Shown here: positions 1 through 40,465 of the stretch, one piece after another | How positions within the stretch are numbered: the first letter of the stretch is position 1 | Layout of the letters: each line of letters opens with the position of its first letter | Source of the DNA: Vermamoeba vermiformis | Taxonomy: Eukaryota | Assembly (NCBI GenBank): GCA_045837725.1 | Contig: JBEWZL010000079.1 | Location: 1 to 64,000, forward strand | Length of the DNA: 64,000 nucleotides | Reading direction: 5' to 3' | Notes under the pieces: model-generated | Seen by the model: only the letters and a program-made list of their open reading frames with translations | Database searches by the model: none | Told to the model about the DNA's origin: nothing | Made by a program: the position numbers and the translations under genes

Positions 1-341
1 ATGCGTATGTGGTGCGACTGCGTGGACGAGTTGCCCTGCCCAGACTGACAACAATGTTTTTGTTCGCGACTGCTCAACAACAAGGAAACTAACACTCTGA
101 CAACGATAATATTTAACAGTTACAACGAATGATTGATGCTTCGTGCTCAGGTGCAGAAACTTCCTAGTTTACTTAGTGAACGGATGCAGCAACATGAAGT
201 CGTTTGCCAACGCGTTGAATAACTAGATATTTGAATTGCGCCTCGTGGGAATGAGGAATTGAGGTACGGTAACCAAATATCTGACAAAGATCTCTTGCGT
301 GTAAGTTAATTAAAAATATTTTTAATAAATTTATACTAATT

Positions 342-3262
342 CGTAAAATTAGCAGGAACTAGATTGGATTTAGAATATTGAAACGAGTAATTATTGTTGG
401 GCTAAATAATTTTTTTAAATTGGCCCGATCAACTGGTCCGGTGGATTCAGCGCAAAAGGGATATGGAATAGTTGGTACCCTTATTCCAATCAGGCATACG
501 ATTACGTACTCCAAGAAATTATCAAATCTACCGAAGAAGAATTCACTGGGGATAACTACGTGGAGGCGTACATTACAATTGAAAAAAAACAAAACTTTTA
601 CTTCTTCTCATACAATTAGTATTCCAAATCATGATCTTGTTCAGTCAGTTGTTGTGCAGGTAGCCCGTAATTTTTAGCCAACTTATCAATGTCAATGTTG
701 TATCTCTTGGCGTTAAATGTAACCGAATTGTGTTTCTTCGGACACCAATGGCGGTACTTGTGACAAGGCAATTTCGCCTCAAAATCACCACCGCAATAAT
801 GAGTTTCGCATTGCTTGGTTTTAGAGCCATGACTATATTCAGAAAAACCAAGCATTATAATCAGAATGTCACTGAGCGTGTCAAATCCAATCAAATCGAA
901 TTCTTTTGGAATGAGCTGTTGCACATCTTCGGGCATGAATATTTTGTTTGTGCTTGGAATAGCTTCTTCGGCAGAAAAATTGGGAAATTTCGACGCAGGT
1001 GGAAAAATTATCTCGTCCTAAAACAAATTTTTGTCAAGAGAACTTAACATTACGTGCCTTAATATTGAACTCACCGCTGGCTTGATGCTAACGTAACACG
1101 TTGTTTGACCTTCTTTCTCAGCCACTGCTCCGCCATACAAACCGCCATCAATCGCCGAGTTCAAGTAGATCTCGTGCAAATAATTGATCACTAGTTTGTC
1201 TTTCAAGGGCTCGCCTTCATGTCCAATAGCTATTCTAGCACTCTTATAATGCCCAAAGGCAGGTGCACATGAGTCAATACTGAACGTAATCACGTGCAGT
1301 TGCATGTCTAAAATGACACGTGTCAACGAAAATGTCAAACATTCAATCTCATACGTACACAAGAAATTGATCTGCAATGCTAATAATTTGATCTGATTGA
1401 AGTACTCATCTCGCTTATCGCCATCATAGTTGAAAAAGTTTGACCAAGTCGAAGGGTCTCGCTTTTTTGCATCGATGATCTGCTTGCAAGTTATTATCAT
1501 GGTAGTCATTATATAGTGATGATTACCTCGTACAGAATTGTCAAGTGGTCGTATTTATATGAAAGCATTCTAATCGAATGACAGTAGTTTCCTAGGTCCG
1601 TTTCGTCGGTACTAATAATTGGATCTGCCGTACATTGTTATAAATTTGTTACTAACACAGTTGAGCTTACGTGGAATTCTCTCTTTTTTAAGAACAAAAT
1701 CCATATTCGCAAACATCATTATCAGGCAGTAGAGCTTGACCGGATCCAGCTCTGGTTCACCAAGACGTTCCAGTAAAGCCTTGGCGTCCTTCTTATGCAA
1801 CATAACGTGAAATTTTGACGATTCACTACTTTCAAAGGAGGGCACTAATATTGTATTTTTTGGAGGCTCTCCGCGAGGGGGTGCAAGACATGCTATCAAA
1901 CTTTCGTCATTACTGTCTATTAACGTTACATTATGAAATCCTCGGGCATCGTCATGCGATAAGTTCGTATACATTGCATAATTCCAGCACAATTTAATCG
2001 TTTTTGCCTGTTGATCAACGGCTGTAAATTTCAATGCTCCGTTACGAAATGATTTGTCGCCTAAATGTTCGTACGAAAGTTTTTCTAGCTGATGGACTTT
2101 CAATCGCTTGATTAATCGTTCAATAGCATCTGAATCTTTTGTAAGGTCCTTAGCTGGCCGTAAAAACGCTTTATACGTTTTTGTATTCAAATTGTTGAAT
2201 TCGTATTTTTTGAGGTCTTCATAGATCTCGCGCCAGTTCTTCAACAGGTGATTATTAAAATGAGGCTCGGCCAAATCTGAACTTTCTACGATTTTGTGTA
2301 ATATTTCTGCTTTTTCTGGAATCTAAATGAAAGGTGGTTAGCGCAAAACGCGAATGTCTCAGATGCGCACATTTTCAGTTGAAATCTTCTCTAGGATCGC
2401 TTTGTTCTGACTAATACGATATAATACAGCTATAATATACGTCAGTATTATCAATGTAATGCTAGTTAAAAACTCACAGACTTCTGGAAGGCCGTTACTC
2501 CGCAGTATATTCGTGTAAATATTCCAAGCAGCATCAATAGACTTGCAATTTATTCCTAAAAATTAAAATGGTTAGAAAATAACATTAGAAAGATTAAATG
2601 TCAACAAACAACTAAATCCGTTCGAATATTTAAAGGAAAAAATAATTACCAAATTCCACCTCCAAATAATCTCGTATGCTTCGTATTGATAAATCTCGCC
2701 AAGATTTTTGCACCAATATTGTAGTTAAATAAAATCCATCAAGCCATTTAAATACTTCTTGAACGACATCCGTCAAATAAAGCGGATTCAAGACAAGACC
2801 GGTAATAAGAGAATCGTTACTATCATTAATTGGGACTTTTTGTTTTTTTGAGCCTCCTTTAGCAAGCGTTTCGTTGGTTCCTTAAGTGGATGTCAAAACA
2901 AACACCTGATATGATGTAATATAGCTTACGCTTTCTCTTTCGTTCACTCATTGTGGTATTGGCAGTATTAAATAGAAATCTCTTCAGTGCACTTGAAGTT
3001 TTACGCGAATAAAAAGACGCCAAAATCCAATTTCAAAAAGAAACAGGAGTACCTAAAATTTCTGTCGTTTGCAAACGACATTAAAGTATATATTATGACG
3101 TAAAATTAGCAGGAACTAGAATACCTTTAGCATATTGGAACGAGCAATTATTGTTGGGCTAAATAATTATTTTAAATATGATTGGCCGATCAACTGGTCA
3201 GATCGGTTTCTTGGATTTTTTCAGCGCAAAAGAAATGTAATAGTTGATACCCGTAGTCCAAT
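342..3262 (+). repeat. Imperfect ~150-bp direct repeat (342-490 and 3099-3262)
   Basis: Both copies contain cgtaaaattagcaggaactaga...ttattgttgggctaaataatt...ccgatcaactggtc...cagcgcaaaag. Confidence 0.85.
616..2951 (-). CDS. Multi-exon F-box-like protein, copy A of an inverted pair
   Basis: ATG at 2951 (MSERKRK). ORF-track pieces 1612-2274, 1018-1509 and 616-936 join in frame through GT-AG introns. N-terminal LYLTDVVQEVFKWLDGFYLTTILVQKSWRDLS resembles an F-box. C-terminal Cys/His cluster CETHYC...CHKYRHWCPKKH. Confidence 0.7.
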
Positions 3263-3442
3263 GATTATTTCGCTCTGAGCGACCTTGGCCCGCTGTACCA
3301 AGTTTTCTCGCAATGTTGATGTAGAAACAATTTGAGACTCAAATCCAGTCCCAGATCTGTCTGTCATCATCTGTTGAATCAATACAATTGGTTTCGAAGG
3401 AAATTCGAATTTTCCGGTTCTGTTGACTGCCACAATACAACA

Positions 3443-5727
3443 ATGAGTTTACGAAAGAGAAAGCGTAAGCTATTAATTAATCGAGTATTGGATCTTACAT
3501 CCTTTCGAAGGAACCACCGAATCGCTTGTGAAAGAAGCCTCAAAAAAACAAAAAGCCTCAGTTAATGATAGTAGCGATTCGCTTATTGCCGGTCACCCCT
3601 TGAATCCGCTTCATTTTGCAGATGTCGTTAAGGAAGTATTCAAATGGCTTGATGGATTTTATTTAACTACAATATTGGTTCAAAAATCTTGGCGAGATTT
3701 ATCAATACGAAGCATACGAGATTATTTGGAGGTGGAATTTGGTAATTATTTTTCCTCAAATTACGTTAACATTTAATCTTTTCTAATATTATTTTCAAAC
3801 TATTTTAATTATAGGAATAAAATGCACATCTATTGAAGCTGCGTGGGATGTTTACAAGAAGATACTGCGGAATAATGGCCTTCCAGAAGTCGGTGCGTGT
3901 TTTTTTAACTAGCATTTCTATATACATTAATATTATTGTATATTATAGCTATATTATATCGTGTTAGTCAGAACAAAGCGATCCTAGAGAAGATTTCAAC
4001 TGAAAATGTCAGATCTGATTGCGACATCTCATTTTGCGCGCTAACAACCTTTCTTTAGATTCCAGAAAAGGAATATATATTGCAAATAATCATGCAAAGT
4101 TCAGATTTTGCCGAGCCTCAATTTAATAGTCGCCTGTTGAAGAATTGGCGCGAGATCTATGAGGACATCCAAAAATACGAATTCAACAATTTGAATACAA
4201 AAACGTATAAAACGTTTTTGCAGTCAGCTAACGACCTTATAAAAGATTCTGAGGCTATTGAAAGATTAATCAAGCGATTGAAAGTCCGTCAGCAAGACAA
4301 ACACTCGTACGAACATGTAACCGATGAAGCATTTCGTAACGGAGCATTGACATTTGCAGCCGTCGATCAACACGCTGAAACGATTAAATTGTGCTGGAAT
4401 TATGCAATGTATAAGAACTCGCGTGACGAACCCCGAGGATTTCATAATATACAGCTAATCGAAAATGACGACAGTTTCATAGCACGTTGTGCACCTCCTC
4501 GCGGAGAACTCCCCAAAAATACAATATTAGTGCCTTGCTTTGAAAGCCGGGACTCGTTAAATTTTGATGTTATGTTGTTCAAGGAGGATGCTACAGCCTT
4601 ATTAGAGCGTCTTGGTGAACCAGAGCTGGATCCGGTCAAGCTCTACTGCCTGATCATGATTTTTGCGAATATGGATTTTGTTCCTAAAAAAGAGAGAATC
4701 CCTCGTAAGTTCAAATAAGCTACTTACAAACTACTGACAATTTATGGCAGATCCAATTATTAGTACCGACGAAACGGATCTAGGAAACTACTGTCATTCG
4801 ATTAGAGTGCTTTCGTATAAATACGATAAGTTGGCAGTTCTGTACGAGGTAAACATCACTATAATGACTGTCATGATGATAATTACAAATCAGATCGTTG
4901 ATGTAAAAAAGCGAGATCCTTGGACTTGGTCAAACTTTTTCAACTATGATGGCGATAAGCGCGATGAATACTTCAATCAGATCAAACTATTAGCACTTCA
5001 GATCAATTTCTTGTGTACGTATGAGATCAATGTTGACATTTTAGTTGACACGTGTCATCTTAGACATGCAACTGCACGTGACTACGTTCAGTATTGACGC
5101 ATGTCCACCTGTCTTTGTTCATTATACGAGTGCGAGAATAGCTATTGGACATGAAGGCGAGTCCTTGAAAGACAAACTCGTGATCAATTATCAGCACGAG
5201 ATCTACTTGAACTCCGCGATTGATGGCGGAGAAGTGGCTGAGAAAGAGGGCCAAACAACGTGTTACGTTAGCATCAAGCCAGCGGTGAGTTCAGTATTCA
5301 ACACGTAATGTTAAGTTCTCTTGACAAAAAGTTGTCTTAGGACGAGCTAATTTTTCCGCCTGCGTCGAAATTTCCCATCTTTTCTGCCAAAGAAGCTATT
5401 CCAAGCACAAACAAAATATTCATGCCCGAAGATGTGCAACAGCTCATTCCAAAAGAATTCGATTTGATTGGATTTGACACGTTCAGTGACATTCTGATTA
5501 TACTCCTTGGTTTTCCTGAATATAGTCATGGCTCTAAAACCAAGCAATGCGAAACTCATTATTGCGGTGGCAATTTTGAGGCGAAATTGCCTTGTCGCAG
5601 GTACGGCCACTCGTGTCCGAAGAAACACAATTCGATTACATTTAACGCCAAGAAATACAACATTGACATTGATAAGTTGGCTAAAAATTACGGACTACCT
5701 CCTCAACTGACTGAACAAGATCAATGA
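3443..5727 (+). CDS. Multi-exon F-box-like protein, copy B of an inverted pair
   Basis: ATG at 3443 (MSLRKRK). Same intron positions as copy A and highly similar peptides (ORFs 3528, 4080, 4744, 5045, 5422). Confidence 0.7.
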
Positions 5728-15663: not shown

Positions 15664-16318
15664 ATAATAAATAGTCCAAACTTAACGAAACGCAAAAATC
15701 CGTACGTTAGATCAAATTTTCGATTTTTGAAGAACAGCACATCTTACTGATGTTGGGACAGCGTTCTTTATTTTGGTAAGTTCTTTGGTGTTGTCTTTGT
15801 AATGAGAAACGCGGATATAATTTTTGATTAGTACCTGATCGGTAATAGTTAATTCTAATCTTGTCATACCGCATTAAAAAAACCAGAAAAAACATAAAAA
15901 ATTTCTTAACACGCACCTAAATATAATTGCTTCCAAATATCATAATCAAACGGTTCTTCTTTGAGATCCGGATAATCGCCTAACTTTAATTTTCCAAAGG
16001 TTATTCATGATTGATTTGCTTATTTTTGGCCCCAAAATCACGTCATAAGCCAAAATTTTCGATGGCAATGCAATAGAACAATTTCCATCGGAGTACGGAT
16101 CTGCTCCGCACTGACTTCTTTCTACTGAGGTCTTATGTTAACTTAGAGAAGGGCCCAACTCTGTTGCCACCACATACATCTGACACTTCTCTTCATTCTG
16201 CAAAGCGTAAAAACTTGGGGACACAACTTTGGTCCGATCAGTCCGAAAGATTCTGTCAGGACGACTTAAAAGCGCAGAATATTAAGGTTGTTTTCCAATT
16301 AATTAACAACTAACAACG

Positions 16319-17764
16319 ATGTCTCTCTCGAGCATTTTGGCGCTTGTTATCTTAACGAGTCTCGCATCTGTTAGCTTTGCTCAAACCAAGCACTACGTCC
16401 TCGCATCTGCTACCGGCAACGGAAATGGAAACGATTGGACCAACGCATATCAAACACTTCCTGCTACTTTAGTTCGTGGAGACATTTACTACGTTGGCTC
16501 CGGTCAATACCCCAGTTTGACGCTAAACGATGCAGAATCTGGTTCAGAGTGGATTACTATTCAAAAAGCTACTGCCAACGACCACGGCACTGATGTTGGA
16601 TGGAGCGATGAATATGGTACTGGCAATGCAAGTTTTCCCACAATCACTGTCGCCTCGTCGTACTACAATTTCAACGGATCTGTTGGCGGCGGTCCTGGAT
16701 CGTGGTTCACGGGCCATGGTTTTGACGTCTATTCAACTGGAAATGTCGGCCAAGCCCTCGTCTTCTTCAATGCTGACGTGCATCACATAATGTTGAGTCA
16801 CACCAGTGTACATGCGGATCGAGACACGCTAACTGCTGCCATGAAACTGACCTTAGGCGGCAATCACGACATTACTGTCAGCTACTGCGCGGGCTACAGC
16901 GTGTTTGGCGTCTTCTTCCACCTCGCTAACGTCTACAACATGGTCGTAGAGTTCTCATACTTCAAAGACAACAAGAGCACAGCAGACTGGCACAGCGAAG
17001 GTATATCGTTCCTAGGCACAGTCACCAACTTGATCGTTCGTCACTGCGTCTGGTGGAAAATTGAAGGCTCGGCGTTCTTGGCAGGTGTCAACAACGGCGA
17101 CGCGTATAACTGGACTGTCCACGGCAACATCTTTTCGAACTCTTGGAGCCCTGCGCTGTATATTGCTGATGACGGAGGGTCCATGAGCGGTCTCCAATAC
17201 TACAACAACTTGATTACCAACGTCAACACTTCATCTGGTGGCATCTACATTTCAAAAGGCTCAGACAACAAAGTCTACAACAACATGTGGTATCATAACG
17301 TAGTCAACTCTTTGTCTATCTGGGCTGACGCAGACTACAACTGGTTCTACGACAACTATCGCATTGACGGTTGTGCTCCCATCTGCGACTTGAACCCTGA
17401 TGCTGTTGCTGCTGAAACGCACGGTGTCGCTGGTACTGGCAATCCGTTCGTGAATTGGGATGGCTTGGCTGATCCTACTACGAGCTCAGTTGACTTTCGT
17501 TTGAAGGAACACACCGCGCCTGGTCTCGACGTAGGCGCTCCGTTCAATGTTGACATGTTTGGCACAGAGCGATTATCAGCACAATGGGATCGTGGTGCCA
17601 CACAATTCACCGTTCCCGTGCCTGTTTCTCCCGTGTCTGCTCCTGCTTCATCACCTCAATCGATGGCACCGAAGACTCTCAGCTCACCAACCGCGAACTT
17701 ATCCAGCAATGGAGTGGCGCTTGGTGCTTCATTGTTTGGTTGGGTACTCGCTTCTCTTATGTAA
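16319..17764 (+). CDS. Intronless secreted, probably GPI-anchored, right-handed beta-helix (pectin-lyase-like) protein
   Basis: 481-aa ORF with signal peptide, Asn-rich beta-helix-like repeats, DFRL...DMFGTER...WDRGA motif, Ser/Pro linker and hydrophobic tail. Confidence 0.75.
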   Translation: MSLSSILALVILTSLASVSFAQTKHYVLASATGNGNGNDWTNAYQTLPATLVRGDIYYVGSGQYPSLTLNDAESGSEWITIQKATANDHGTDVGWSDEYGTGNASFPTITVASSYYNFNGSVGGGPGSWFTGHGFDVYSTGNVGQALVFFNADVHHIMLSHTSVHADRDTLTAAMKLTLGGNHDITVSYCAGYSVFGVFFHLANVYNMVVEFSYFKDNKSTADWHSEGISFLGTVTNLIVRHCVWWKIEGSAFLAGVNNGDAYNWTVHGNIFSNSWSPALYIADDGGSMSGLQYYNNLITNVNTSSGGIYISKGSDNKVYNNMWYHNVVNSLSIWADADYNWFYDNYRIDGCAPICDLNPDAVAAETHGVAGTGNPFVNWDGLADPTTSSVDFRLKEHTAPGLDVGAPFNVDMFGTERLSAQWDRGATQFTVPVPVSPVSAPASSPQSMAPKTLSSPTANLSSNGVALGASLFGWVLASLM

Positions 17765-18239
17765 GAATTGATAAATAAACTTCCTTATTTTAGTGCGTCG
17801 ATTTTTCTGAAGACAACGACACTCTAGTAGACTTGTCAGTATAATATTGAATTTTTTAAGTTAATGTAAGTACTAGAATCGATTAATGATCTCTTCCTAA
17901 TTCCGCGTACGCGTAAGTTAGCGGCGCAAACTTGACGGCGGGTGATTGGCTGTCGGGTGACATTTTGTGACAAGAACATCGGTTATTTTCATAGTTTGAC
18001 ATTATACCTTAACAGTGAACCACGAATGAAGAGTATCACTGTGTTCGTCTTCGTTCTTCTTGCAGCGTCAAGCAGTTGCACAACGCCACCAACATATCCC
18101 TTTTCAGCCGGCCAATGTTTTTAGATAAAAATTATACAAAAATTCAGGACCGTTGATTTTTGGTAATCGCCAGAAGAGACTGTAGTACAAAAAAAGGTAC
18201 AATTTTGTTGGGTGATGTCCATTGACAGTGCGCCACACC

Positions 18240-18700
18240 CCTGAGTAGATCCGGATCGGCCCCAGATCCGATCCACTTCCCCCAGCTCATTTCTTTGTAT
18301 TATTAATAAAAAATGATTAATCACAATACAATACTTGGTTGAGCAAGCACATGTATTCATAGGGAGGAATTTGGCCGGGCCCTAACCCATCCAAGTGTCG
18401 AAGTCACGTTGAGGTGACTGACACGACCAAAACCATGTGATTCATCAATAGAAAGGTCGCAGGCATCAAGGCGACACCCCTCCATAAAGGAGACCGTACA
18501 ACAAAAGAGTGTCCGCTACGGCAAGTGACAAGTCACTTTCTAGCCCATCCAACTCAGTGCCAGTGAGAGTGCTGTTCCGAACCAGTGGTGTTGCCGAGGC
18601 AACACGACCTCCAGACCATACTCTGACCCACATCGTCGAGAATCAGCGCGTAACTTTCTCATTGTAGCGGCGCTAAGGCTTCACCCTTAGACGCCGGATG
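18240..18700. other. Hairpin-dense non-coding tract inside the transposon (candidate structured RNA)
   Basis: At least seven closely spaced stem-loops and no long ORF. Confidence 0.45.
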
Positions 18701-18751
18701 TATTACAAACAGTATTTATTATACTACCTACAGCAAGTTTGTTAACAAATT

Positions 18752-21700
18752 CTATAGTTTAAGCTTACGACAAACGGGTTTGTGTGTGTTCTTACAAGTA
18801 CTGCACAGAAAAATTGGTCTTTTTTTGTCGGAGCTGCATTTCCAACATACTGTGCTAATTTGCTTTCGTTTACGTGGGTTGCACGTTAGGCAAAAACCAT
18901 TGACTCGTCTTTCAAAGACATCTTCGCTCTGAACTCGCACATGAGAAGAGAGACTTTTTGATTTCAGATCTTTTGCGACAATTATTCTTCGGGTTCTGAG
19001 AGATCTGTGTCTAGTTAACGGAGATGCATTTTTCTTGTTGCGTGCAGACTGCTCTTGACTAAGTTCATCCTTTAAAATTTGCAAGAAATCTCGAAATTGA
19101 TCTTCGTCATTGTTCTGAACTTTCTTATAGTAGCGATAGCACTGGTATGAATTCCAAGTGATTATATTTATAATATTTTCCCATACTACTTGTGTCCATT
19201 TTGTTAATCTGAACGGCCAATCAAACGTATGAATTTGTCTTGCCGCCTCGTCGACAAATCCTTTGGTCTTTGTGTATTCTTGGACAATAAGTGGCTTTGT
19301 ACTCTGCATTTACAACTAAATTAGTAACTTAATGACGCAAGCATAAGAAGCTTACTGCAGTCGACGGTACTCCTTGACACAGATCTGTTGCGGCTGATGA
19401 CGCTGCAATGAAATTAGATAAACACTTTGATTAATATTGAACTAACCATCGACGTAATTGGAATAGAGATTCATAATTGCATTGTTATCGCGGAAAGAGT
19501 GAGCAATAATCGGACCAGCAGTGCCTTCTTTTTCAAACGTCAAGTGTTGCCCTGGTTCTTGTAGAGGATTTTGCAAAGTACCAAATATATATGAAGGAGC
19601 ATTTTTCTTTGCCGACAACAAGAATTTAATGCCTTGTTCATCCAAAATAGTAGCCGTCTCTTCCGCACCCCATTTGCTATCTGTTATAATCACGTGGCCA
19701 GGCTTGTGATTGTTCAATTTCTCGGCTAGCTCTAACAGCTGATATTTAGGAGGCAGACATAGACCCAAGAATATATCGAAGTCCCAAATGTAGTAAGATT
19801 CATCGGCGGCCAAGTAGAGTAAGACACCGTTTGGATGTGGCTTGCTTGGAATGAATTGCTGAGTTACGTTAGTTAAAATGTATTATCTAACGATAACAAG
19901 TACTTACTCGGGCATAAAAGCGGCCCAAAAACGGCAAGATGGTTTCATCAAAGGTAATTTTTTGAGATGGAGACCAATTTTTTTGGCATCGTTGAGCTAC
20001 TTCTTGAGTAACTTTGTCAATATCAAAGTGGAAATAATGCATAATCTGTTCGAATCGATCTCGGCCCATTTTTGACGATATCCATTCGTTGCCATACAAG
20101 GGATCTTTGATAGTCCAGTAATCTCTGAGGCGACGACCTTTAACACAACGACTTGCGATCCCAATGGCAATGAATATATCAAATTCTGGCAGCGTAAGTG
20201 GTTTCCAATTTGTTCTTTGCTTTTGAAAAGTAACTTTGTCTTCTTCGGAAGGTTCAAACTCGGTACTAAAATATTCTTCCAAATGCTTTACGTTTGAAAC
20301 CCAACTTGGTACCGTTAGCAATCCTAATTGTGATCAGAATGTTTGTTTTCTCGTTAGCTTATGTAATATTTACCTTTGTATTTTTGTTGCATTTTCTCGG
20401 CCCAAAGTTTGAGCTGTGCAGTTTTGTTCAAACGCCATGTTTTTCGTTCTTGCATAACTTCAGAAAATGAAAGACTGGCATAACGGTTTATATCTTCGAC
20501 CATCTGTAAACGGGTTTGCTCTGCGGTATTCATTAATTCTGAGAATATTCAACGCTCGAATGAATGATACGTACCAGGCAAAAAGCGCGAAAAGATGCTA
20601 GTGTTGGTCATAGGCTGCTTATTGGTGGGCCCGCTATCCAACGTACAAAAGGAGGTACGAACAAAACCTTTACTTGTTTTATCTCGTATTTGCCAACCTT
20701 GATTGGATAGTGCATGCGGAGATTGGAAGTACTTATTCATTATTAATAGTGCATTTGCCCGAATGTCCGACTCGCATATCCAATTTGTTTGCACCTTCTT
20801 ATTTTTCCAATCGATGAGCCATTCCCATAGATCCTAGCCAAAATAAGACAACCATTCGATTATCTCGCATACATACATTATGGAAGCGTACTTTGTAAAT
20901 GCACTTGATTTGCTCAAGAGCTATTTTGCTTCCCGGTGCCACTTTATCCACCATAAGGAGATCGTCGGTTACAGCCTTAACAACAATATGCGAGTCTGGC
21001 AGCTGCCACTCCTTATCTATCGAAGGTGTCTGAAGCTTTGGTTGGCCTTTTTCCAATTGCTTGGGTTCTTAACGGTGCATTAGAATTAAATTAGCCGCGT
21101 TGCACTTACTTTTTTTAGGAGGAGCAATTAAGTTGTCTTCTGTTTCCAACAGGTCGCAAGCGACACTGATTTTACGTTTCCTTGTTTGCATCGTACAGGA
21201 AGCAGGAACGGCAGTCTTCAACGGAAATTGAATGCCGACTTCGGCTTGTTTAATGTAAACCACTGCACTGGCGGAGCGAACACCACCGCTTAACTGCGAA
21301 AGAATAGCAACACGCTCCTACTTGACATTTAGTCCGAGATCGCTTGTTGGAAAAAACATACCCGTGTAACTTTAGCATCATTATAATTGTTCCAATGTAA
21401 AGCACAGCGTTCGTTGACAACAACTCCATAATGTCCATTATTGCGAGTTTTTCCATCGTGCCAAATTACACCATAAAGTAGGTACAAAGTTCCTTCAAAG
21501 TGAACGGATGTTTCGATTGTCAAACGTCGAACTTGCTTGTGTTCATCGAGCTCGGAGAAACGATTGATTCGAATCAATAACAGTTTTGGGTGGTTCAACA
21601 CCTGTTTGCGTAATTGGCAATCCTTTTTATCATTAGATCGAGTACTTCGTTAACAAACATTGATAATAATTACCTTTGCTTGATATTCTACCACTTCCGG

Positions 21701-22628
21701 AGCAAAAAAATCGTCAATTCCTTGTTGAACACTCTGAACGGATGGCTTGAAGTAGATGTCGATCCCTGTACTACATTAGTTATGTGTCGCAAAAACAATA
21801 CGTACAGTTGATCTGCTCCACTCTTCCGTCGTTCACTTGGGTAGAATTTTCATCAAATATCGCCGTACTGAATTGGATAGCTAGTTCTCGCCGCGAATCT
21901 ACCAAATTTAACAAATCTTGTAACAATAGGGTAGCGTCTTGTTGTCCAGCTTGCACAATTGTTCGTACATTAGAATTGATAGCGAGAGTAGTTGCTAGTC
22001 TTTCAAACAGAACTGCAGCATCGACCGGTTGGCTTTGTTCAATGAATTTGAGTAAATACTCGTTGACTAGCATTGCAATCTCGGTAGTTGACTGTTCAAA
22101 CAGTTGCCGTAGACACGGGACCTTTGCAATAAGTACCAAGCATACGTGCAGAAAACAACGAACACTTGGGTTAACAAACCCAAATTTAAACAGCGGAGAC
22201 TATCGCAGAAAATTAGGATTACACTGCACAAGATTATTATTCTTACCTCAAATTCAAATGGATATAATTGTATCTTTCCTATCTTATGCGAAGTAAAATT
22301 GCCTCTATTTTTTGGCTGGCTGTAAATTTGTTAGCACAGAAGACAGATCGACCGTCGAATTTTCTTACTTTAAAATGTTATTAATGATCGCAATAAATTC
22401 ATCTTTTGCTATATTGCCGTGATATGCTTCGTAGACCCAGTGAATGTCGCCCATTGAGAGACCACGCTCATTTGTTTCGTGGAAGTGGATCAACGACTGC
22501 ATGACATTTGGAGAAGCTATAAAACGTTGTAGATCGGTGTCTGAAGATACGACACATTAAAAATAAATTTTTAATAGCGCAAATAACATAGCCTTACCCG
22601 AAAAGACACGAACAAGCGACATCTGCAT
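18752..22628 (-). CDS. USP deubiquitinase - chromodomain - piggyBac transposase fusion (~1,100 aa, 13 predicted introns)
   Basis: USP boxes GFVNPSVRCFLH, GQQDA, HDGKTRNNGHY, WNNYNDAKV. Chromo-like IKCIYKVRFHN/DLWEWLIDWKNKKVQTNWICESDI. Transposase TFDET, QFIPSKPHPNG, ITDSKW, GFVDE and Cys-rich tail. All GT-AG joins checked stay in frame. Confidence 0.8.
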
Positions 22629-22876
22629 CCAAAAAAAATAGTACCTTAGTATTGGCTAAAAAATGTAGTAAATTACTCTAGAACGTCCAAATTTAATTGA
22701 GATTTTCGCCGTTTAGGTAAAATAAAAAATATGAAAATTCGATGACAAATTAGGATCGGGTTCATTTACCCTACTGAAGGCCGGCAATTGGTGGTATCTT
22801 GCAACAACATAAGCATCGAACTGGTTCAAAACAGAAAATGGCGAATTACTGCAGAAAAAGCACGTGAGTATTTATT

Positions 22877-25703
22877 TCAAGGAATTCCATCGAGATCACT
22901 CAGCTGGTTGAAAGCGGCAATGAATGCATTGGGATCGAACTCAGGAACTTCAAAAAGTCCAAGCGAGCAAAGCAACACTTCATAATGGAGCTGTAGGTAC
23001 TGTAGCACCAGATCCAGTGGCTGCTCGCCAAATATTGTCGCCATAGCAAGCCCGCCTGCGTCACTTAACTCTAACTCATCCACGACACCGGCAACTCGTT
23101 GGTACAATTCGCAAACTTGGACCAGCAATGGATCTGCGAAACTCAGTGTCAACAAAGTGCATGATAAAAATGACTCCTCTTACTGATCGTTGGTACTGAA
23201 TGAGCCAAGGGGTGTTCGCGTAGGAATTTATGACGATTGAATAGCTCAAATGTGTAGAACGGCTCGACGGAGAATTCAGTGTATGCATCCAGGTTCACTC
23301 GACGAACAAACCACGTGCCTAATGAATCATTACACAAATTGACACAGTGCGAAAGTTGCTTACCGATGAATTGGAAGACATCTTCTTGATATTCAACCGC
23401 AATTTCGAGAGGAAGACAGTGATAACAATTGAGCCGCACCATGTCATTCCTTGCTGAATCTGCCCCGCGATTGACGACAAATGAGCCATCAATCATCGTG
23501 CCGCCCGCCCCACCAACTGTTATAACCCCCTCGCGCCAATTACTCCAATTATTACCAGGGAAATTTTTCCGAAGTAACATCGACGTACAACCTGGAGTGA
23601 ATTAATCCATCGCGCCGTTTAATTTGCAGAATTGGAATTACCTATTTGACTGAGGCCATTAAAGGAGGAGTCTATTGTTAAGCCACCAGTAAATTCTGCT
23701 TTGGCCAAATCGAACTTGGAATACAGCTCCCCAACCTGAGCTTTCGTTATTTTGATTGAAGTGATTAAACGTCAAGATTGTCACTTACTTTAAGATGTTT
23801 TCTCGGGCCGAAGATACATGATTTACCAACGGCACATTCATGCAACTGCTCGATGAGCAAAACTTTGCAAGACGCACAATACAACAGTTGATTGTTGTGC
23901 AAAAGCAAGTGAGCAAACGCCCAACAACCTCCGGTGGGGAAAAATATATCAATCAAAGGCTTAATAGGTTCCGTATTCCGAGCCAGTCCACTGCGCGAGA
24001 GTTTTCGTTTCTTGGCATTTGTCGAAGGCCGCAGTGCTCGCCTCCACTGCATTAGCTTTTGTTTGTTGGTTGTCCAGGTCGACAAAGAATAACCAAGAGT
24101 TGTATTTGCCTCTATAAAATAATTAGTGGAAGTACAGACCAAATATTAACAGCTTACCACAGTTGCGTTTCTCGGACTCGTAAATGTTTACATCTACATT
24201 ACGAATTGTCGCCACCCAACGTATAAATCTGGAATATACACCGACTACTCGATGTTTCAAGTATGATTGCATTCGTTTTGGTTGTAAAAGCATCATATTG
24301 TCCACGAGCGGAATGTCAACATCCCCTAAGCACAATGCATTAGAAATTAATTGTTGCGTAAACGGTAACGCACTCACGAGTCCCAGTCTGCGAACGCTCC
24401 TGCACCACAAAGCGCCACCCCGGTGGGGCATCACAGTTAGCCACCAATTCATCTGGATCTACGAAACCAGAGACCGTAAACACAACAACGTCTCTTGCAT
24501 TGCCCAAGTACTTGTCATCTAATTGATAAAATAAATACAAATGCAATAACAATAGTTTGTTGCGTACTATCAGCATGCGATCCCATGGCGGGGAATACTT
24601 CTCGGTTATTTGCCCGAGCTAGTTCTATGTCATCCTCCGATAAAGGCGGATAGGCAGTAAACATTACACAAGTTGAGTGACTGCAAAAGTAGCCAAAGTC
24701 GCGTAGTTTTCGGAATAGTAGCTGGATGCACTCGGGTGTTTGATTCGTAGAATCACGGTAGAAATTGCTTCATAGTAGTTGTTAGAATAAATAAAATTGA
24801 TATATTGAATCATACTTATAGGAGATACCGGTGCCTGTATTTCCGTACACTGCATACAGCCGTTTGGTAACTGCAGTCAACCGTTCATTGATCTTGCCCT
24901 CTGGTGAGAACAAAATGTCTTGGAACAGCGAGGATTTAAAGGATGAGTATTCAGACTCGTCAAAAAACTGGTGATAGACCAGAATATCAACGCCGAAAGC
25001 TGAGACCATTTCCGTAGCCCTGTGTCACGAGATCATTATAATTAACCCCACTGACGGTAATCTTACTTACGCAGGTAATTCAGTATGCGTACTCTCCTCA
25101 ATCAATTGTTCAAAGCAAGTAATAGGCTCGGAGTCAATAAAGGCGGTATCATTAAGGGTGTCGTAGATCGGTGAATCTAAAATTGTGACATTAGATTTAA
25201 TTGCTCAATACTATTTATCGATAAATACTTACCAATTTCAATTGGTTTTGTACAAATCAGGCTGCAGTTCCAAGTTAAAGAGTAGAACCGCTCTAAAACG
25301 CCATCTGAATTTTTCACCTTCAAATCGCCAGCAATTATCTGCTTTACGAACTCCTCAAGCTTGCCGTAGGGCATTGTAATATTGGGCTCCTCTGCTAAAA
25401 GGGTCGAGATTACCGCCCTAAAAACTAGCCGTTACTAATTAAGTTAATTTAATTAATTAAAATTTTAATTTACGCAACAAATTCCCAAAACTAATAAGAA
25501 ATAAATACGTACCTTAGAGGAATATTTTTCTTATTTTCTGGATCAATTTTGAATAAACGCCGAAAGGCTGCACCAACGATCTTGTTTTGGCTGGTGGCGG
25601 ACAAGCTAACCACCCTATAGTCATGGCGGACGCTAGACCGGTCAACAGAATTGTCCGGTCCGCATTCCACAACTCTAGTGTGCACATGTGTTGTCGCCTC
25701 CAT
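22877..25703 (-). CDS. Transposon cargo gene with an AlkB-family (ALKBH2/3-like) 2OG-Fe(II) dioxygenase domain plus uncharacterised flanking domains
   Basis: Spliced peptide YHQFFDESE...KRLYAVYGNTG..ISY...MGSHADNDKYLG...IPL...MQSYLKHRV...RWVATIR matches the HxD...H...RxxxxxR signature. Followed by AKKRKL and CASC...HEC. Confidence 0.75.
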
Positions 25704-27545
25704 CCAGAAACAGATAAATGGAAAAATTCGGGACTGTATTTTTGTCTACAAGATTTTACTCATACACACAACGATGGGTATAAATAATTCAACGTTGCGT
25801 ATGCCAAATTATGGAAAACACCATCTTACAACGGCAGATTTAGTGATCCTCACCCGATCTCCGCACCACCCTTCGCCATAAATTACTGTAAGCTTAGAAT
25901 AATTAAAATACCCTACCAAAAAATCAATGTTGCTAATAACCCGCTAAAATAATTGTCCCTTCAATATTTATAAATTTTTTTTCGTGCGCCGGGATCAAAG
26001 GGATATTATCAAGTCAGCCACAGCGCACACACGTTCAACGACACCAATATGCTCTATTATGGCTCATCAAGTGTTACGTCGGAACAATATGTATTAGGAG
26101 TGCCATCAGAGCCGTTCAGTGTTGGATTGGTGCTGCATCCGGAAAAAGTTCCCGCTCATAATGGCTTCTTTCTTCAATTTGACTGGAAACCTTCGAATTG
26201 CGCGCCTGGAAACTCATTTAATACCTCACTAAGAGCTGATGGGTAATTGAAGTTCGATTAGTTCAAAGATCTAATTTTAGTTTTAGATTCGCAATTGTTT
26301 TTCTGAAAGACTTGCCCACGAATGAGCAAGTAGAACAATCTATTGGTACTCTTGGTATTGGAAGAGTACCGAATACATATTCATTCGGCTATGTATCAAC
26401 TTACAATGAGTTTTACGTTTGTCGTTGGTGAGTGTTGTCGGATTCGGTTCGAACAAAAGGCTTATCTTTCTCTGTAATAGGAATGATCCCTTGCCGATAG
26501 TGCAAAAACCGGGAATACTCCGCAAAGTGTGTCAAGTGTTTCCTTATTCTGATTTCCCAATGACTTGTGGCGATGCTTGGCATTTTGACCTTGTTCTCGA
26601 ATACAATCAGCTCTCAGTAAGTGATTATAACTGCCATAAGACTAGTTTATTTAATCGATATTGTTTAGTGGATTGGCGACGGTGGCGTGATATATTCAAT
26701 TCCGTTTGAAATGGATCCCGTTGATTATTTCATTGGACTGAGTTTCGGAAACGATAATTATTACCAACAACAAGAATTAATAGAAGCCATGTATTACCAC
26801 GTTGAGAAGACAACACAATTCGATGTAATTGAATCGAATTTAACCGGAGACTTCAGATTTTGCGGATCTGCCGAACCTCTCGAACAATCGATTAAACTGA
26901 TTAACAATGGAGATAATGAATACGGACTGGCAATCCTCGTATCCGCGTAAGAGTGCTCAACTATTATTTCAGTACCGAACCTAATTTACTAATTTGACAC
27001 GTGTCACTCAGATTCTCTTTCTTCTTTTCTTCTCGTGACATGCCAGATTGTGTCCCGCACGACAACTTAAGACTTGATGGCACCGGGTTCCCCCGCATTG
27101 ATGCTTTTGCTTATTCCGCGTACGATCAAAAGTTCTACATTTGCGATTGGTTAGTAGCGCCATCGACAACAACATGATATTCAACTTAGTTTAATAGGAA
27201 CGGACCCAATCAGACCACTCCTTGTACGCCTGTTCTGGCTGTGAGCAGAGGGTTCATTCATTGCGAATCAACTTACAACTTCATTTTATACTTTCAAAAC
27301 GGCGTACTCAACGTAAGTACTGTTTCTTCAGAATAGTAGCGATCTTGTGCAAGCTAATCTTACTGACCGTTTAGGTGTACCTCAACGACGCTCCGTTTTT
27401 TACTGCCAATCTCAACTTTGAAGAGGAAGCTTATTACGCTGGATTCGCGGCCAGCTCTGGCAACATTGATCGCCATTGCCGCCAGGTCATCTCCAATTGG
27501 ACGATGAACACTGACTTGAGTTCAGTGAATCTCACCGAGTATCTC

Positions 27546-27626
27546 CCGCCTGTCAGTCCGCCCGTCACTCCGCCAACCGATGCACCTGTCACTCCGCCAG
27601 TCACACCCCCTGTCACGCCTGCACCA
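27546..27626 (+). repeat. Pro/Thr linker repeat (PPVT)n in the lectin gene
   Basis: PPVSPPVTPPTDAPVTPPVTPPVTPAP. Confidence 0.8.
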
Positions 27627-28530
27627 AAGTTTGTGTTCTTGAATAGTGCAAGACTGGTCAACCAAACTTTCAGAATAATGTTCGGATCTGGCATGATGTA
27701 TCACTCTGAGCCGTTGAACGCGCTGGACCAAGTCGCTTTTGCATCAAGTTTTACTTGGACTCCAACGAACTGCGATTCAGTCTATAATGGTGCTGATGGG
27801 TGGGCCTTACATTTTTTTGTGACACGTGTCAGTGAACTAACGGATCTGTCGTCTTAGATGGGCGTTTTTCCTGACGAAGAACATTCCGACATTAGAACAA
27901 GTGCAAAGTTCAGGTGGTGGTCAGCTTGGAATTCAACAGGTTCCAAATGTAACAATGGTTGCTTACAGCGCTACTTTCAATGAGTTCTGGTTCGCGAACT
28001 GGTATGAAATTTCACGCTTCTTGAACTTTCACGAACTTAAATAGTCATTAATGAATATATAATAGGACAACGCCCCTTCTTGATCTTCATTGGCAGTCAG
28101 TTCGTACACCTGTCAATGGTCCGAAATACACTTGCGGAGGCTCATTCAACTTCACGATATCTTACGATCAGCCTACCTTAAAGGTACGTACTTGCATTTG
28201 TATCGTTAAGCGCTTCCGAGAATTGAGAATGATTTTATCTTGTAGATGCGTCTCAACAACGAAGTTGTACTTTCGACAGAATTCATTCTCGACCAATCAA
28301 CACCTTATTACTTAGGTTTATCCGGCGGTACAGGCGGCGGATACTTCGTTCAAGATTTTACGAACTGGTCCATCGCCCGTCCTTCTCCGCTAATTTGAAC
28401 AACGTAGCACTATTTGCCACGAGCAGTTAGAGAATTTTACAGTGTAATATATGATATATTGTCAGTCGCGAAATACAACCGAACTCTTTATATTTTTAAG
28501 TCCGATTTAATAGTCGACCTAAAAATTTGA

Positions 28531-28617
28531 TTGGCTGTCAGTCAACGGTCCGTAAAACACTTGCGGAGGCTCGTTCAACTTCGCTATAACTTGCGATCAG
28601 TCTACATTAAAGGTAAG
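28531..28617 (+). pseudogene. Orphan exon remnant of the lectin family
   Basis: Closely resembles exon 28090-28188 (cacttgcggaggctc.ttcaacttc...cgatcag.ctac.ttaaaggta). Confidence 0.6.
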
Positions 28618-28897
28618 TCTATATACAACCGTATTTACGCGTTTCCGATCAATCAGTCAAGATTTTACAAACTGGTCATTTGTCAGTCCTGCTTTGAGCT
28701 AGATCTGTTAATGTCAAATACGATAACTGGTAAAAGAAGGTTTATCGTTCGATATTGATCAAAAATACGAAGCATAATTCGATATGCAACTTCATCGGGT
28801 TTTTTCTCCGACAAGACTGACAAAAAGTGCACGCAAAACTTTTCGTTCACAACTTTTATCAATAAAGGCCAGCCATACTACCACAACTCTTTATAAA

Positions 28898-31438
28898 ATG
28901 AAGTTGAATAGGTATTTAATTGTATCTCTACTGGCCTTGTTCTCCGCCGTGCTCTGTACGTGGAATTTTGACCCGCAGATCATCCAAACGAGAAATGACG
29001 ACACTTCGCTACTTTACTACGGAGGATCGAGCCCCAATAGCGATTACTTCATAGAAGGCGTACAGCCAGAACCCTATAATACTGGCTTGGTCCTCTATCC
29101 AACAAAGCTGCCAGTAAGAGAAGGATTTTATCTAGAGTTCGATTGGCTTCAGAGGCCCCTTTCTGCAAGAAACTCTTCATTGACGGCATTTGGCGGCAAC
29201 GGGTAATACATATATACATTATTCAATTTTATTGAATTGACCTAATTTTGGCCTGATCAGATTTGCTGCAATTTTTCTTAAAGATCTGCCCACGAATGAG
29301 CAAGTAAAGAGTTCCGTTGGTACTCTCGGAGTAGGCAGAGTGCCTAATGCTTACGTTATGGGGTATTCTGCAACTTACAACGAGTTCTATGTTTGCCACT
29401 GGTATGTGTTGTCGGATTCACTCAGGACAAGCATGATAATAATAATTGTAATAGGACCGAGGCGTTACCGATAGTACAAACACCAGCATTTCTCCGCAGC
29501 TACTGCAACGTCATTCCTTATCAGCACACACTGACATGTAACGTCACTGCTTGCTCGTTTTATGTCAGATCGTATTACGACTACATCGAGGTAAGGTCAC
29601 GGCAAGATAACAATATTATATATGACTATTAATACATTATTTAATAGGTTTCGTTGACAACCATGCAAAACGTGTTGTTTAGAGCTCCTTGGTCGATGGA
29701 TTCGGAGGAGGATTATTACGTGGGCTTCAGCTTTGGAAACGACAATTACTACAACTATCAACAACACGAAGGATTTGTGTACTATTATAGAGAACTCCGA
29801 ACCAACTTTGACTCTTCGCAAGATCTGAACACCCAAATTTTTCAAGTGGAAACTTGCGGCCTTGTATCTCGATTCAATCCTTTTAGACTGACCTCTGGCA
29901 CTGATCAATTTGGCAGCTCTAATCTTATTTATGTGGTTCGTACGCACAACGGCTTTGTTACTAAATATACTTGGACTCCAACGACCTGCGACGAATTCGG
30001 CATTGGCGGAGACGGGTGCGTAAAAAAGTGGAAATTTCGTTGAATATGATACTTATCGCTTTGATTTGTTTAGGTTTTCGTTCTTCTTATCAAAATATGA
30101 TCCCGAGTGCGCTACGGATACTATTGCAAATTTTCCAAATATAACCGCTGTAACTTATTCAGCTGCCAAAGACCTATTTTGGGTTTGTCAATGGTACGGT
30201 TAACTAAATATAATATTATATTAATTATAACTGTTTGTTCTGTAGGGAAAAACCGATTGGTCAGTTCGATGATTCTTCCGCATGTGTTTCTGCTGCCAAT
30301 CCTTTGCCGCGACTCGGCTGTGGCAATTCTTACAACTTTGTCGTTTATTTTGCTAATAATGCTCTGAGCGTAAGTTAACCTCCGTAGTTTCTATACCTAT
30401 ATTTAATTCTAATGAGAATTACGGTTCAGGTTTTTGTTGACAACACGTTGATTTTGACGACGCCGTTCAGCATGGAGGATCGGCCGTACTTCCCTGGCTT
30501 TGCTGGCACCACGGCCTCGCCGTTCTATTTTGAGCAGTACATCACAAATTGGGTCATTGAAACTGATTTGAGCGTGGCGAATCTGTCCGACTATCTTCCT
30601 GCTTCTTTTATCACCCCACCTGTTGCCGATACTCCTTCTTTAGTGACGTTGGGCACCGCACAAAAAATCGGTCAAACGGTTCGATTGACCACTGGCGGCA
30701 GCGAATCAGGACTGGTCTATTTCTCGCAACCGATTGGTGGAAAGGATCTTCAGCCATTTGCGTCGAGCTTCACTTGGACCCCGACCAATTGCGACGCAGA
30801 ATACAACGGTGCTGACGGGTATTTTTTTAAACTCCGATTCGTATAATTTTAGATTTGAGTCTAATAGGATTTTTTTTACCTGCAGTTGGGCGTTCTTTTT
30901 GACGAAAAATGTTCCGACGTTGGAACAAGTCCAATCGTCATCAGGAGGCTTGCTCGGCATTCAAAACGTGCCTAATGTCGTAATGGCTGCTTACAGTGCC
31001 ACATACAACGAGTTCTGGATCTCGAATTGGTATGACAGACAATACTTTCCAAAAAAGATTAAGGTTAATAATATTAATATTTAAGGACCTTACCGTTCCC
31101 AGACAATTTCCATTGGGTCTCAGCGAATGCTCCCGTGTCTGGCCCGAAATACACGTGTGGTGGCATTTATACTTTTACCGTTGTATACTCTGAGCCGAAC
31201 TTGGAGGTACGTTACTCATCTAATACTATTGTTGTATTATACGCCATATATTACCGAAAATTTGATATTAACTCTGTTTTTTTACGGGCAGATCCGCCTC
31301 AATAATCAAGTCATGATTTCAGCCCAAGTTGATATTGACCAATCAACGCCTTATTACTTTGGTTTATCTGGTGGTACAGGCGGTGGATATTTCCAACAAG
31401 ATGTGACGAATTGGATCGTTGGTCGTCCTGTGTTTTAA
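28898..31438 (+). CDS. Secreted protein with three tandem L-type lectin-like domains
   Basis: Signal MKLNRYLIVSLLALFSAVLC; repeated GGNG/GGDG/GADG-F/W and YxGF/LSG motifs; multi-exon paralog of the disrupted gene. Confidence 0.75.
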
Positions 31439-38996: not shown

Positions 38997-39746
38997 TTAT
39001 TTATCCTCGTCATCGTGACCCTCCTCAGCGTCACCTTGCAAGTCGGATGTCCACAAAGTCAAGTTGTCACGCAACAATTGCATAATAACTGTGCTATCCT
39101 TGTAGCTATCTTCGGATAATTTGTCCAATTCGGTAATAGCGTCGTCGAAGGCTTGCTTGGCGAGTTGGCAGGCCTTGTCGGGGCTGTTCAAGATCTCGTA
39201 GTAAAACACAGAGAAGTTCAAGGCCAATCCGAGGCGAATAGGGTGAGTAGAGGCCAAATCCTTGGCGGCAATATCGGCGGCAGACTTGTAGGAGTCGTGG
39301 GAGTGGTCAGCGGATTCCTTGCGAGCATCTCCAGTCTTGAATTCAGCGAGGTATCTCCAGTAGTCACCCTTCATCTTGTAATAGAAGACCTTTGACTCGG
39401 CGCTTTGTGAAGAGGGAATCAAGTGGTTGTCCAACACGTTAAGGATGTCTTGGCAGATCTTGTTGAGCTCTTCTTCAACCTTCTTTCTGTAATCTCGGAT
39501 GCGACGAACATTATTTTCGTTGCCCTTGTTCTCTTCCTTCTGTTCAATCGAGGAAATGATTCTCCATGAAGCTCTGCGCGAACCAACAACGTTCTTGTAG
39601 GCAACAGAGAGCAAATTTCGCTCTTCAACAGTTAATTCGACATTCAGATCGGCAACTTTCTTCATTGCCTCGACCATTTCGTCGTAGCGTTCAGCTTGCT
39701 CAGAGAGCTTAGCCATGTAGACGTTGTCTTCGCGAGATTCAGCCAT
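38997..39746 (-). CDS. 14-3-3 protein (intronless)
   Basis: AEQAERY-type [54 protein letters not shown]. Confidence 0.98.
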
Positions 39747-40465
39747 TGTTGTATTGTGTGTGGGAGGTGATTGAATTAAATTGAAAATAAAATCTTTTGA
39801 CATTTGTAGGTGCCCTGGTTCATCACGTGCTAGATATGATCAAGATACGACGCCGTTTATTATTGATATGCCGTGAGTTAGTGTACAACAGCTGGGCTCT
39901 AAATATGACGCAATCTTCGGATGTCAAATCTCATCGTGTGTTGACAAAAAAGATATTTTTATAAGCTGAAAATCATTGTCCTATAAACACGCCTATCCCA
40001 GTAAGTAATATTTATTCGACAATTATCGATTTAATATTAATTAAATACTAAATTACCTTTACCGCCTTTTCATCTCGATCGAAATTCAAATTCCCTAATC
40101 TTTCATTTCGATAATAAGTAAATTCCTCCATAATTTTTATCCACGTCCATATCGTAGATTATTCACATTCGTCAAGACTAGAACGTGAATTATTCCGAGC
40201 GCAACCTCAGTTTCTCGTGATCTGCTTCTCACGACAGCCCTTTCATTGTAGATTGACTACGTCAGTTGTGTTCATGAACAATAAGGATAAAGAAGTCTGA
40301 GAGTGTGAGTTTCAGCCGGCTTTCCATTTTTTTGATCGGTTTTCATGAACGGTCAGAGAAAAAATCAAAATTGATCGCGTCTTTTGGTCATTTTATAATA
40401 GTTTTGCTACTCTAGCAACACAAAAGACATAGTATTTTATTATATACATTTTTAATTGTTCTACA

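Follow-up and report, generated by a model that had tools for sequence, protein, structure and literature searches.

An intron-rich gene of Vermamoeba vermiformis that joins a USP-type deubiquitinase to a piggyBac transposase in one reading frame

On the minus strand of a 64,000-nucleotide stretch of Vermamoeba vermiformis DNA (contig JBEWZL010000079.1, positions 1 to 64,000; the whole stretch is hereafter called the window), 14 exons separated by 13 short GT-AG introns make up, between 22628 and 18752, one open frame of 1089 codons that closes with TAG. The encoded protein of about 1090 residues consists, from its N- to its C-terminus, of a region of about 95 residues that precedes the first recognizable domain, a compact ubiquitin-specific protease (USP), a basic linker, a chromo-like stretch and a full piggyBac transposase. 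The fusion of USP and piggyBac transposase in a single open reading frame (ORF) is well supported, and it appears to have been selected, since a second locus recovered from a metagenome (L001) has the same order of modules, shares eight introns with the gene in the window and differs from it by amino-acid changes that are far rarer than synonymous ones. A preliminary description of this DNA had read the gene as a single fusion of USP, chromodomain and piggyBac transposase; the USP-piggyBac unit is borne out by the architecture of L001, the eight introns, the signature of selection and spliced sequence records, whereas the chromodomain is still unverified. In our judgement the odds are slightly in favour (roughly 0.55) of the gene being an immobile, domesticated piggyBac fusion that is kept at a fixed locus.

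The stop-to-stop ORF list of the window displays a staircase of open minus-strand frames from 22628 down to 18752. From the ATG at 22628 onwards we searched independently, by dynamic programming, for GT-AG introns between 30 and 130 nucleotides (nt) long, and this returned the chain of 13 introns given in the preliminary description, ended at the same stop at 18752 and met neither a stop nor a frameshift within the 1089 codons. Chaining of this kind is weak evidence taken alone, as the program also strung five spurious introns through the non-coding 3' flank of L001. The introns are nonetheless real, as is seen from several of their properties: 1) The branch-site motif CTRAY occurs in the last 35-5 nt of nine of the 13 introns, 14-21 nt upstream of the 3' splice site and mostly at -14 to -17, against a background of 0.097 in 20,000 random 30-nt windows. 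2) Retention would bring an in-frame stop into the message in 11 cases and shift the frame in the other two. 3) The introns have a G+C content of 0.33, against 0.41 in the exons. 4) Their positions are conserved in L001, as detailed below. 5) Four spliced records of 151 nt from sequencing run X13, at least 99% identical to the fusion gene, contain three joints that are all GT..AG on the minus strand. One of these records (record 4) spans exons 2, 3 and 4, and the joint 20520>20575 in another crosses the region between the chromo-like exon and the transposase. The status of run X13 as RNA is a guess of the tool, and the run is labelled as a different organism from the best DNA match. RNA-seq runs X20-X22, which do carry the species label of the best DNA match, gave 0 reads at 95% identity or more across 17500-24500, neighbouring genes included, and so provide no test. 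These three runs date from 2026; their label may cover another strain or organism, or the DNA of the window may come from an organism other than the labelled one.

The spliced record across intron 9 also corrects the preliminary description, in which this intron had been drawn as 36 nt long (20539-20574), with the join RFLP/ELMNT, and singled out as the weakest of the chain. The record makes it 54 nt, with six residues fewer in the protein and RFLP/EQTRL at the junction, and an intron is present at the corresponding alignment position of L001. As 54 is a multiple of three the reading frame is kept at this join. The boundaries of intron 5 (about 21623-21673) are ambiguous, with four in-frame alternatives of 36, 51, 57 or 72 nt.

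Pfam was scanned with the ten exon-bearing frames, and the Pfam, PDB and AlphaFold2 analyses all operated on single exons or frames. Two of the ten frames matched the UCH family (PF00443) and three the DDE_Tnp_1_7 family (PF13843), with the frames between them matching no family. The frame bearing the His box (21329-21649) matched UCH with an expect value (E) of 1.2e-8 and 35.3 bits, against a cut-off of 23.9, over positions 142-238 of the 254 in the profile; the frame bearing the Cys box (21780-22199) matched positions 2-108 with E 0.015 and 15.4 bits, which is below that cut-off. The two profile ranges are collinear, and both the Cys-box and the His-box halves of the domain are covered. The set of USP catalytic residues listed in the preliminary description stands in part on alignment to a PDB sequence: the NGHY and YND motifs, which supply His323 and Asp341, align with their counterparts in Ubp6 (1vjv, E 0.033) and are both kept in L001, whereas Cys107 is placed by the Pfam match only, nine residues into an alignment that begins at profile position 2. 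This is where, as we take the USP consensus to run, the catalytic cysteine is expected, and the Cys box GFVNPSVRC and the QQDA motif are presumably hallmarks of the USP family. A phmmer search of the PDB with the Cys-box exon found no USP, and the AlphaFold2 model of exon 4 had a mean confidence (pLDDT) of 45, too low for use in a fold search. The linker that follows the USP carries the motif QTRKRKIS, which is likely to be a nuclear localisation signal. Upstream of the USP, lyase-type clusters were returned by the ESM Atlas for exon 2 (136-143 shared features), and these were taken as chance matches.

The three DDE_Tnp_1_7 frames together span positions 28-349 of the 349-position profile: 28-144 in the frame 19887-20333 (E 6e-17), 144-282 in 19442-19882 (E 6e-8) and 297-349 in 18752-19309 (E 2.5e-4). 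Among structures in the PDB, the transposase exons matched piggyBat (9c0f, E 1.2e-6) and the T. ni piggyBac transposase (6x67, E 0.003). The three aspartates (the DDD triad) and the Cys-rich tail noted in the preliminary description were recovered in these comparisons, with Asp740, Asp924 and the tail aligned to PDB sequences and Asp813 assigned by its motif and Pfam coverage; all three aspartates are kept in L001. The Pfam model zf-Tnp_2 did not match the Cys-rich tail.

Word-based homologue searches with the piggyBac exon, exon 9 and the USP His-box exon returned nothing. An exhaustive HMMER search with a 138-residue piggyBac exon recovered 352 proteins at E<=1e-3, five of which are close relatives with more than 40% identity (P0001 at 77%, P0007 at 64% and P0002-P0004 at 43-46%). 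All five are fragments of 58-221 residues, each a single-member metagenome cluster found on 1-3 contigs. In P0002-P0004 the equivalents of exons 10 and 11 run uninterrupted in one ORF, and hence the KYKG/LL junction, given as KYK/GLLTVP in the preliminary description, is independently validated. Neither UCH nor Chromo was found by Pfam in any of the ten longest N-terminal extensions picked from the best 150 of the 352 matches.

A scan of metagenomes yielded three loci. The most informative is L001, a sequence of 3989 nt in which the gene is cut at its 5' end and is collinear with residues 143-1086 of the protein in the window, with USP, QTRKRK-containing linker, chromo-like stretch, piggyBac transposase and Cys-rich tail in the same order; its gene model was closed at 3370, where the last homologous exon runs into its first stop. 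All nine introns of the shared part match introns of the window gene, eight at identical alignment positions and one within an indel, and intron 13 of the window is an extra one that has no L001 counterpart. Over 940 aligned codons, from which codons opposite gaps were left out, the two proteins are 52% identical, and the proportion of nonsynonymous differences (pN) is 0.33 against a saturated proportion of synonymous differences (pS) of 0.84. Broken down by module, pN and pS are 0.34 and 0.88 in the USP, 0.51 and 0.72 in the linker, 0.28 and 0.92 in the chromo-like stretch (56% identical and among the best-conserved parts), 0.21 and 0.79 in the piggyBac core, and 0.38 and 0.87 in the Cys-rich tail. 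The linker exons are open in both loci. As pN lies below pS in every module, linker included, all of them have been under purifying selection and kept as coding sequence since the loci split, and this coding conservation is the strongest argument for one translated unit. The six catalytic residues are all present in the window, and five of them are seen in L001, the Cys box lying off its contig. The other two loci, L002 and L003, are one sequence in two data sets, a decayed, frameshifted and truncated copy in which the post-USP exon stands directly before the piggyBac N-terminus and the USP core and chromo-like exon are missing. The L002 sequence (1-3467) also contains an ORF (1-393) that by eye resembles an NDT80/PhoG-type DNA-binding domain. 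Viral contigs yielded no relative, and a match on a prokaryote genome contig (L004; 37 residues, 36%) was dropped as irrelevant.

The module between linker and transposase is harder to assign. The stretch is divided by intron 8 and was searched as exon peptides, and the profile test is therefore partial. With the ESM Atlas the top three named clusters were Chromo (PF00385), at 0.89 and with 141-160 shared features, which is below the tool's line of 0.9. Pfam gave no Chromo match at E<=1 with the two exon frames, or at E<=10 with the exon-9 peptide of either the window or L001, and there was no PDB sequence match at E<=10. The AlphaFold2 model of exon 9 alone (pLDDT 51) predicts helices and is unusable. 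By eye, an aromatic residue stands at one of what we take to be the three usual cage positions. The chromodomain of the preliminary description could thus not be confirmed, Pfam and the PDB being blank and the likeness of motifs and the sub-threshold ESM Atlas result serving as leads only. We think it fairly probable that residues 467-516 have a chromodomain fold, and binding of methyl-lysine by them would be less probable than the fold.

Beyond the poly(A) signal of the fusion gene lies a conserved non-coding element, which occurs 290-400 nt past the stop at the same distance and in the same orientation in the window and in L001 (83 nt, 78% identical, E 5e-12); since adjacent synonymous sites are saturated, this degree of identity stands out. 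RNAalifold, run on the two sequences, gave a structure of 48 pairs, 15 of them kept by two-sided changes, 5 by one-sided changes and 0 broken, a count that leans towards the structure because the latter was derived from the same two-sequence alignment. The folding z-score is -2.9 on the plus strand. On that strand the core of the element contains CCCTAACCC, or 1.5 repeats complementary to TTAGGG, at 18380-18388; this sequence occurs once in the window (shuffled sequences gave a mean of 0.05, with a match in 5 of 100) and once in L001, in the matching place. An A/T-rich box and a conserved CCCAGATCCG are found upstream of it. In Rfam neither the window nor L001 or L002 had a match at the gathering score, and at E<=10 the 3' flanks gave only rows of chance level. 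With its own compensatory hairpins and promoter-like boxes the element resembles a gene in its own right and is a candidate for a telomerase RNA or for another RNA gene; telomerase RNA in particular is a tentative identification that we hold at somewhat less than even odds. If read as a separate RNA gene, the element forms a conserved micro-synteny with the fusion gene and favours the latter being fixed and domesticated.

The surroundings of the gene gave no sign of element ends. There were no convincing inverted repeats around it (16000-26000), the best inner match among 77 TTAA pairs across it was 9/16, no inverted copy of the conserved 3' block was found in the window at up to 3 mismatches, and the 64-kb window holds no second copy of the gene. 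The same non-coding neighbour in two loci, together with this want of ends, favours an immobile, domesticated gene. The preliminary description had suggested that the transposase might deubiquitinate itself, for its stability, or else histones at the integration site, and to speak of integration presumes an active transposon; the same two observations point instead to an immobile gene. On the 5' side of the fusion gene, an AATAAA that overlaps the TGA stop of an upstream ORF suggests a separate gene whose end lies about 245 nt upstream of the ATG at 22628. The upstream ORFs at 22877-23601 were considered as extra 5' exons of the fusion gene and ruled out, their frame ending in that TGA.

Several points weigh against a domesticated fusion translated as one protein: 1) Besides the blank Pfam and PDB searches with the chromo-like stretch, the Cys-box exon alone reaches only the Pfam match at E 0.015 given above, and L001 does not extend to that part. 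2) Like active transposases, the protein has an intact DDD triad and an intact Cys-rich tail. 3) The RNA support amounts to four short records, at a depth of 2, from one run of guessed RNA status, and no X13 record reaches directly from the USP exons into those of the transposase. 4) The synteny comes from one other locus, and L001 may be a diverged paralogue from the same or a related genome rather than an orthologue. 5) The decayed partial copy in another metagenome (L002/L003) implies that the family was duplicated or moved at some time.

The second and fifth of these points agree with a different reading, in which the gene is an autonomous transposon of the piggyBac superfamily that acquired USP and chromo-like accessory domains and whose ends were missed or have diverged; the chromo-like part would then guide integration, with either chromatin or the transposase as the target of the USP. 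Decayed partial copies are what transposon families leave behind, the five diverged relatives (43-77% identity) are known only as rare metagenome fragments, and in principle the conserved 3' element might belong to such a transposon and act in cis. We regard this reading as unlikely, as neither inverted terminal repeats nor TTAA-bounded matching ends were found around the gene, the upstream gene, which has a stop and an AATAAA of its own, leaves only about 245 nt before the ATG, 13 introns, eight of them shared with a synonymously saturated locus, are unusual for a mobile element, and the downstream element has the look of a gene of its own. That the USP and the transposase are separate products, arising through alternative transcripts, intron retention or an internal start, with the fusion at most a minor isoform, is very improbable. 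Retention of intron 7 (21068-21109) would indeed end a USP-only protein 13 codons on, and no single read runs from a USP to a transposase exon; however, both the linker and the chromo-like exons lack stops, are spliced in frame at either end and are conserved in L001, where pN is lower than pS, one spliced record crosses the chromo-like/transposase junction, and even in L002 the post-USP exon still directly precedes the piggyBac N-terminus. An equally slim chance attaches to a functionless relic, either decaying or kept only for binding DNA or chromatin with both enzymes inactive, since the Cys box that departs beside its cysteine from what we take to be the usual USP consensus, the single aromatic cage position out of three and the low expression (depth 2 in run X13) are set against six retained catalytic residues, five of them also seen in L001, 1089 codons free of stops and frameshifts, and pN far below pS in both enzyme domains.

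For the domesticated fusion, the order of its modules suggests a speculative mechanism. The basic motif would direct the protein to the nucleus, chromo-like stretch and Cys-rich tail would together anchor it on chromatin, the USP would strip ubiquitin locally, from histones or another nucleosomal substrate, from repair factors or from the fusion protein itself, and the intact DDD nuclease would bind or cut DNA at the anchored site. Such a protein would be a self-contained chromatin-targeted nuclease-plus-deubiquitinase, with a logic like that of the heterochromatin-guided piggyBac excisases of ciliates. The fuller version, in which a live piggyBac nuclease with its own chromatin module and deubiquitinase is used by a non-ciliate host to cut marked chromatin, in programmed DNA elimination or rearrangement or in the excision of other elements, with the USP erasing histone ubiquitin or protecting the nuclease, appears quite unlikely to us.

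Parallels to individual parts of this architecture exist among mobile elements. The integrases of chromoviruses (Ty3/gypsy) carry a chromatin-reader module on a DDE-type recombinase, which is thought to guide target choice; a 2008 study by Gao and colleagues is said, by its title, to concern such chromodomain-bearing integrases. The enzyme of chromoviruses is a retrotransposon integrase, however, and its chromodomain is C-terminal, whereas in the present gene the chromo-like module precedes a piggyBac transposase of the cut-and-paste kind. Cysteine proteases also occur on DNA transposons, namely Ulp1-like ones in Mutator-type elements and OTU-like ones in Helitrons. These elements resemble the fusion gene in encoding a protease for ubiquitin-like modifiers along with a transposase, but their proteases have C48 or OTU folds and their transposases belong to other superfamilies, whereas here a USP/UCH (C19) domain is joined to piggyBac.

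Closer in origin are the domesticated excisases of ciliates. The available text on Tpb2p describes a Cys-rich domain that interacts with heterochromatin-specific histone marks and an endonuclease that executes DNA elimination (PMC3861120). Like Tpb2p and PiggyMac, as far as the available accounts of them go, the fusion protein is piggyBac-derived, has a nuclease of the active type and a Cys-rich domain, and would be brought to chromatin; those accounts describe no USP or chromo-like module, whereas the fusion gene would carry both in one polypeptide. In contrast to the ciliate systems, the fusion gene has a source that uses the standard code, and nothing shows programmed DNA elimination there. 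A second comparison is with host-transposase fusions, of which CSB-PGBD3 and SETMAR are named in the accessible part of one paper (PMC12062965). Such fusions, KRAB-transposase fusions among them, share with the present gene a host domain spliced in frame to a transposase and a conserved chimera, but they came about when a host gene captured as an exon a transposon that had inserted into it, and in most of them the DNA-binding part alone is left; according to the accessible text of a further study (10.1101/2020.05.07.082677), 76.5% of transposon-derived domains are DNA-binding ones. The present gene retains an entire transposase, DDD triad included, and has an enzyme, a deubiquitinase, as its partner, a combination that goes unmentioned in the accessible text of both of these sources. 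More generally, no USP-piggyBac fusion was found in the full-text literature that could be searched, supplementary tables of domain pairs being a further place that may bear on this, and none is mentioned in the available text of PMC3597677, PMC12062965 or the preprint 10.1101/2020.05.07.082677. Thus host-transposase fusions and domesticated piggyBac genes were already known, and a fusion with an enzyme partner, the USP, that keeps the whole catalytic core did not turn up and is apparently new. If active, this single polypeptide would couple the removal of ubiquitin with the cleavage of DNA or with transposition, and a link between chromatin ubiquitination and cut-and-paste recombination would become directly testable; the fusion protein could also serve as a natural chromatin-tethered transposase. 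Were it only a transposon with accessory domains, it would still represent a new type of accessory domain for the piggyBac superfamily.

Table 1. Features of the fusion gene and its flanks, in window coordinates unless another locus is named
Feature	Position	Strand	Basis or remark
Whole predicted coding sequence	18752..22628	-	splice search; intron 9 set by spliced record
Exon 1	22628-22598	-	exon and ATG are a prediction only
Exon 2	22540-22369	-	
Exon 3	22319-22247	-	
Exon 4	22199-21806	-	
Exon 5	21765-21659	-	
Exon 6	21622-21362	-	
Exon 7	21317-21110	-	
Exon 8	21067-20877	-	
Exon 9	20833-20575	-	
Exon 10	20520-20374	-	
Exon 11	20323-19908	-	
Exon 12	19858-19447	-	
Exon 13	19402-19356	-	
Exon 14	19303-18752	-	
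Intron 2, 49 nt	22320..22368	-	joint 22319>22369, run X13 record 4
Intron 3, 47 nt	22200..22246	-	joint 22199>22247, CT..AC on plus strand; run X13 record 4
Intron 8, splits the chromo-like stretch	20834-20876	-	
Intron 9, 54 nt, between chromo-like module and transposase	20521..20574	-	joint 20520>20575, run X13 record 2
USP (UCH, peptidase C19-type) domain, residues ~99-370, exons 4-7	21246..22181	-	Pfam
Cys box GFVNPSVRC, Cys107	22157-22155	-	placed by Pfam match start at profile position 2
QQDA motif	from 21944	-	follows Cys box
His box NGHY, His323	21433-21431	-	aligned to Ubp6 (1vjv)
YND, Asp341	21379-21377	-	aligned to Ubp6 (1vjv)
Last USP strand AVVYIKQ	21266-21246	-	
Basic linker motif QTRKRKIS	21165..21188	-	QTRKRKPS in L001; QTRKHKIS in decayed L002
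Chromo-like stretch, residues 467-516: EQIKCIYKVRFHN / DLWEWLIDWK ... TNWI ... NKYFQ	20723..20915	-	split by intron 8
piggyBac N-terminal region and DDE_Tnp_1_7 core, residues ~566-965, exons 10-14	19127..20575	-	Pfam
Asp740 in FDET	19949-19947	-	aligned to piggyBat 9c0f
Asp813 in ITDSKW	19681-19679	-	motif and Pfam coverage only; no PDB match of exon 12
Asp924 in GFVD	19252-19250	-	aligned to residue 447 of 6x67
C-terminal Cys-rich domain, C-x2-C-x11-C-x2-C-x10-C-x2-C-x3-H-x3-C	18770..18892	-	aligned to 6x67 tail
AATAAA, 32 nt after TAG	18715..18720	-	likely poly(A) signal of fusion gene
AATAAA overlapping TGA stop of upstream ORF 22877-23179	22871..22876	-	~245 nt before ATG 22628
Structured non-coding element beyond the poly(A) signal of the fusion gene	18230-18720; L001 3385-3900	+ likely; L001 -	conservation
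A/T-rich box upstream of CCCTAACCC	18299-18318		
Conserved CCCAGATCCG upstream of CCCTAACCC	about 18262-18271		

The rest of the window, which has a G+C content of about 40%, is eukaryotic in view of its spliceosomal introns and a 14-3-3 gene. The latter (38997-39839, minus strand) encodes a complete 14-3-3 domain (E 1e-108) in a single frame of 280 codons and is apparently intron-free, against the 13 introns of the 3.9-kb fusion gene. A 485-codon frame on the plus strand (16307-17764), convergent with the fusion gene, shows a weak match to a right-handed beta-helix (E 8e-6). At 651-5707 there is a large interrupted palindrome with nested inverted-repeat arms (I1-I11) of 54-406 nt and 78-95% complementarity, which encloses the mirrored ORFs 1612-2322 (minus strand) and 4059-4718 (plus strand), neither of them in a Pfam family. 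A cluster of diverged direct repeats (D1, D2 and D4; 64-86% identity) extends over 26285-31212, some of the repeats ending like exon-intron borders in GGTAAGT or GGTACGT; one ORF in the cluster (27375-27857) has a Pro/Thr/Val-rich repeat, and the whole looks like a tandem family of paralogous genes.

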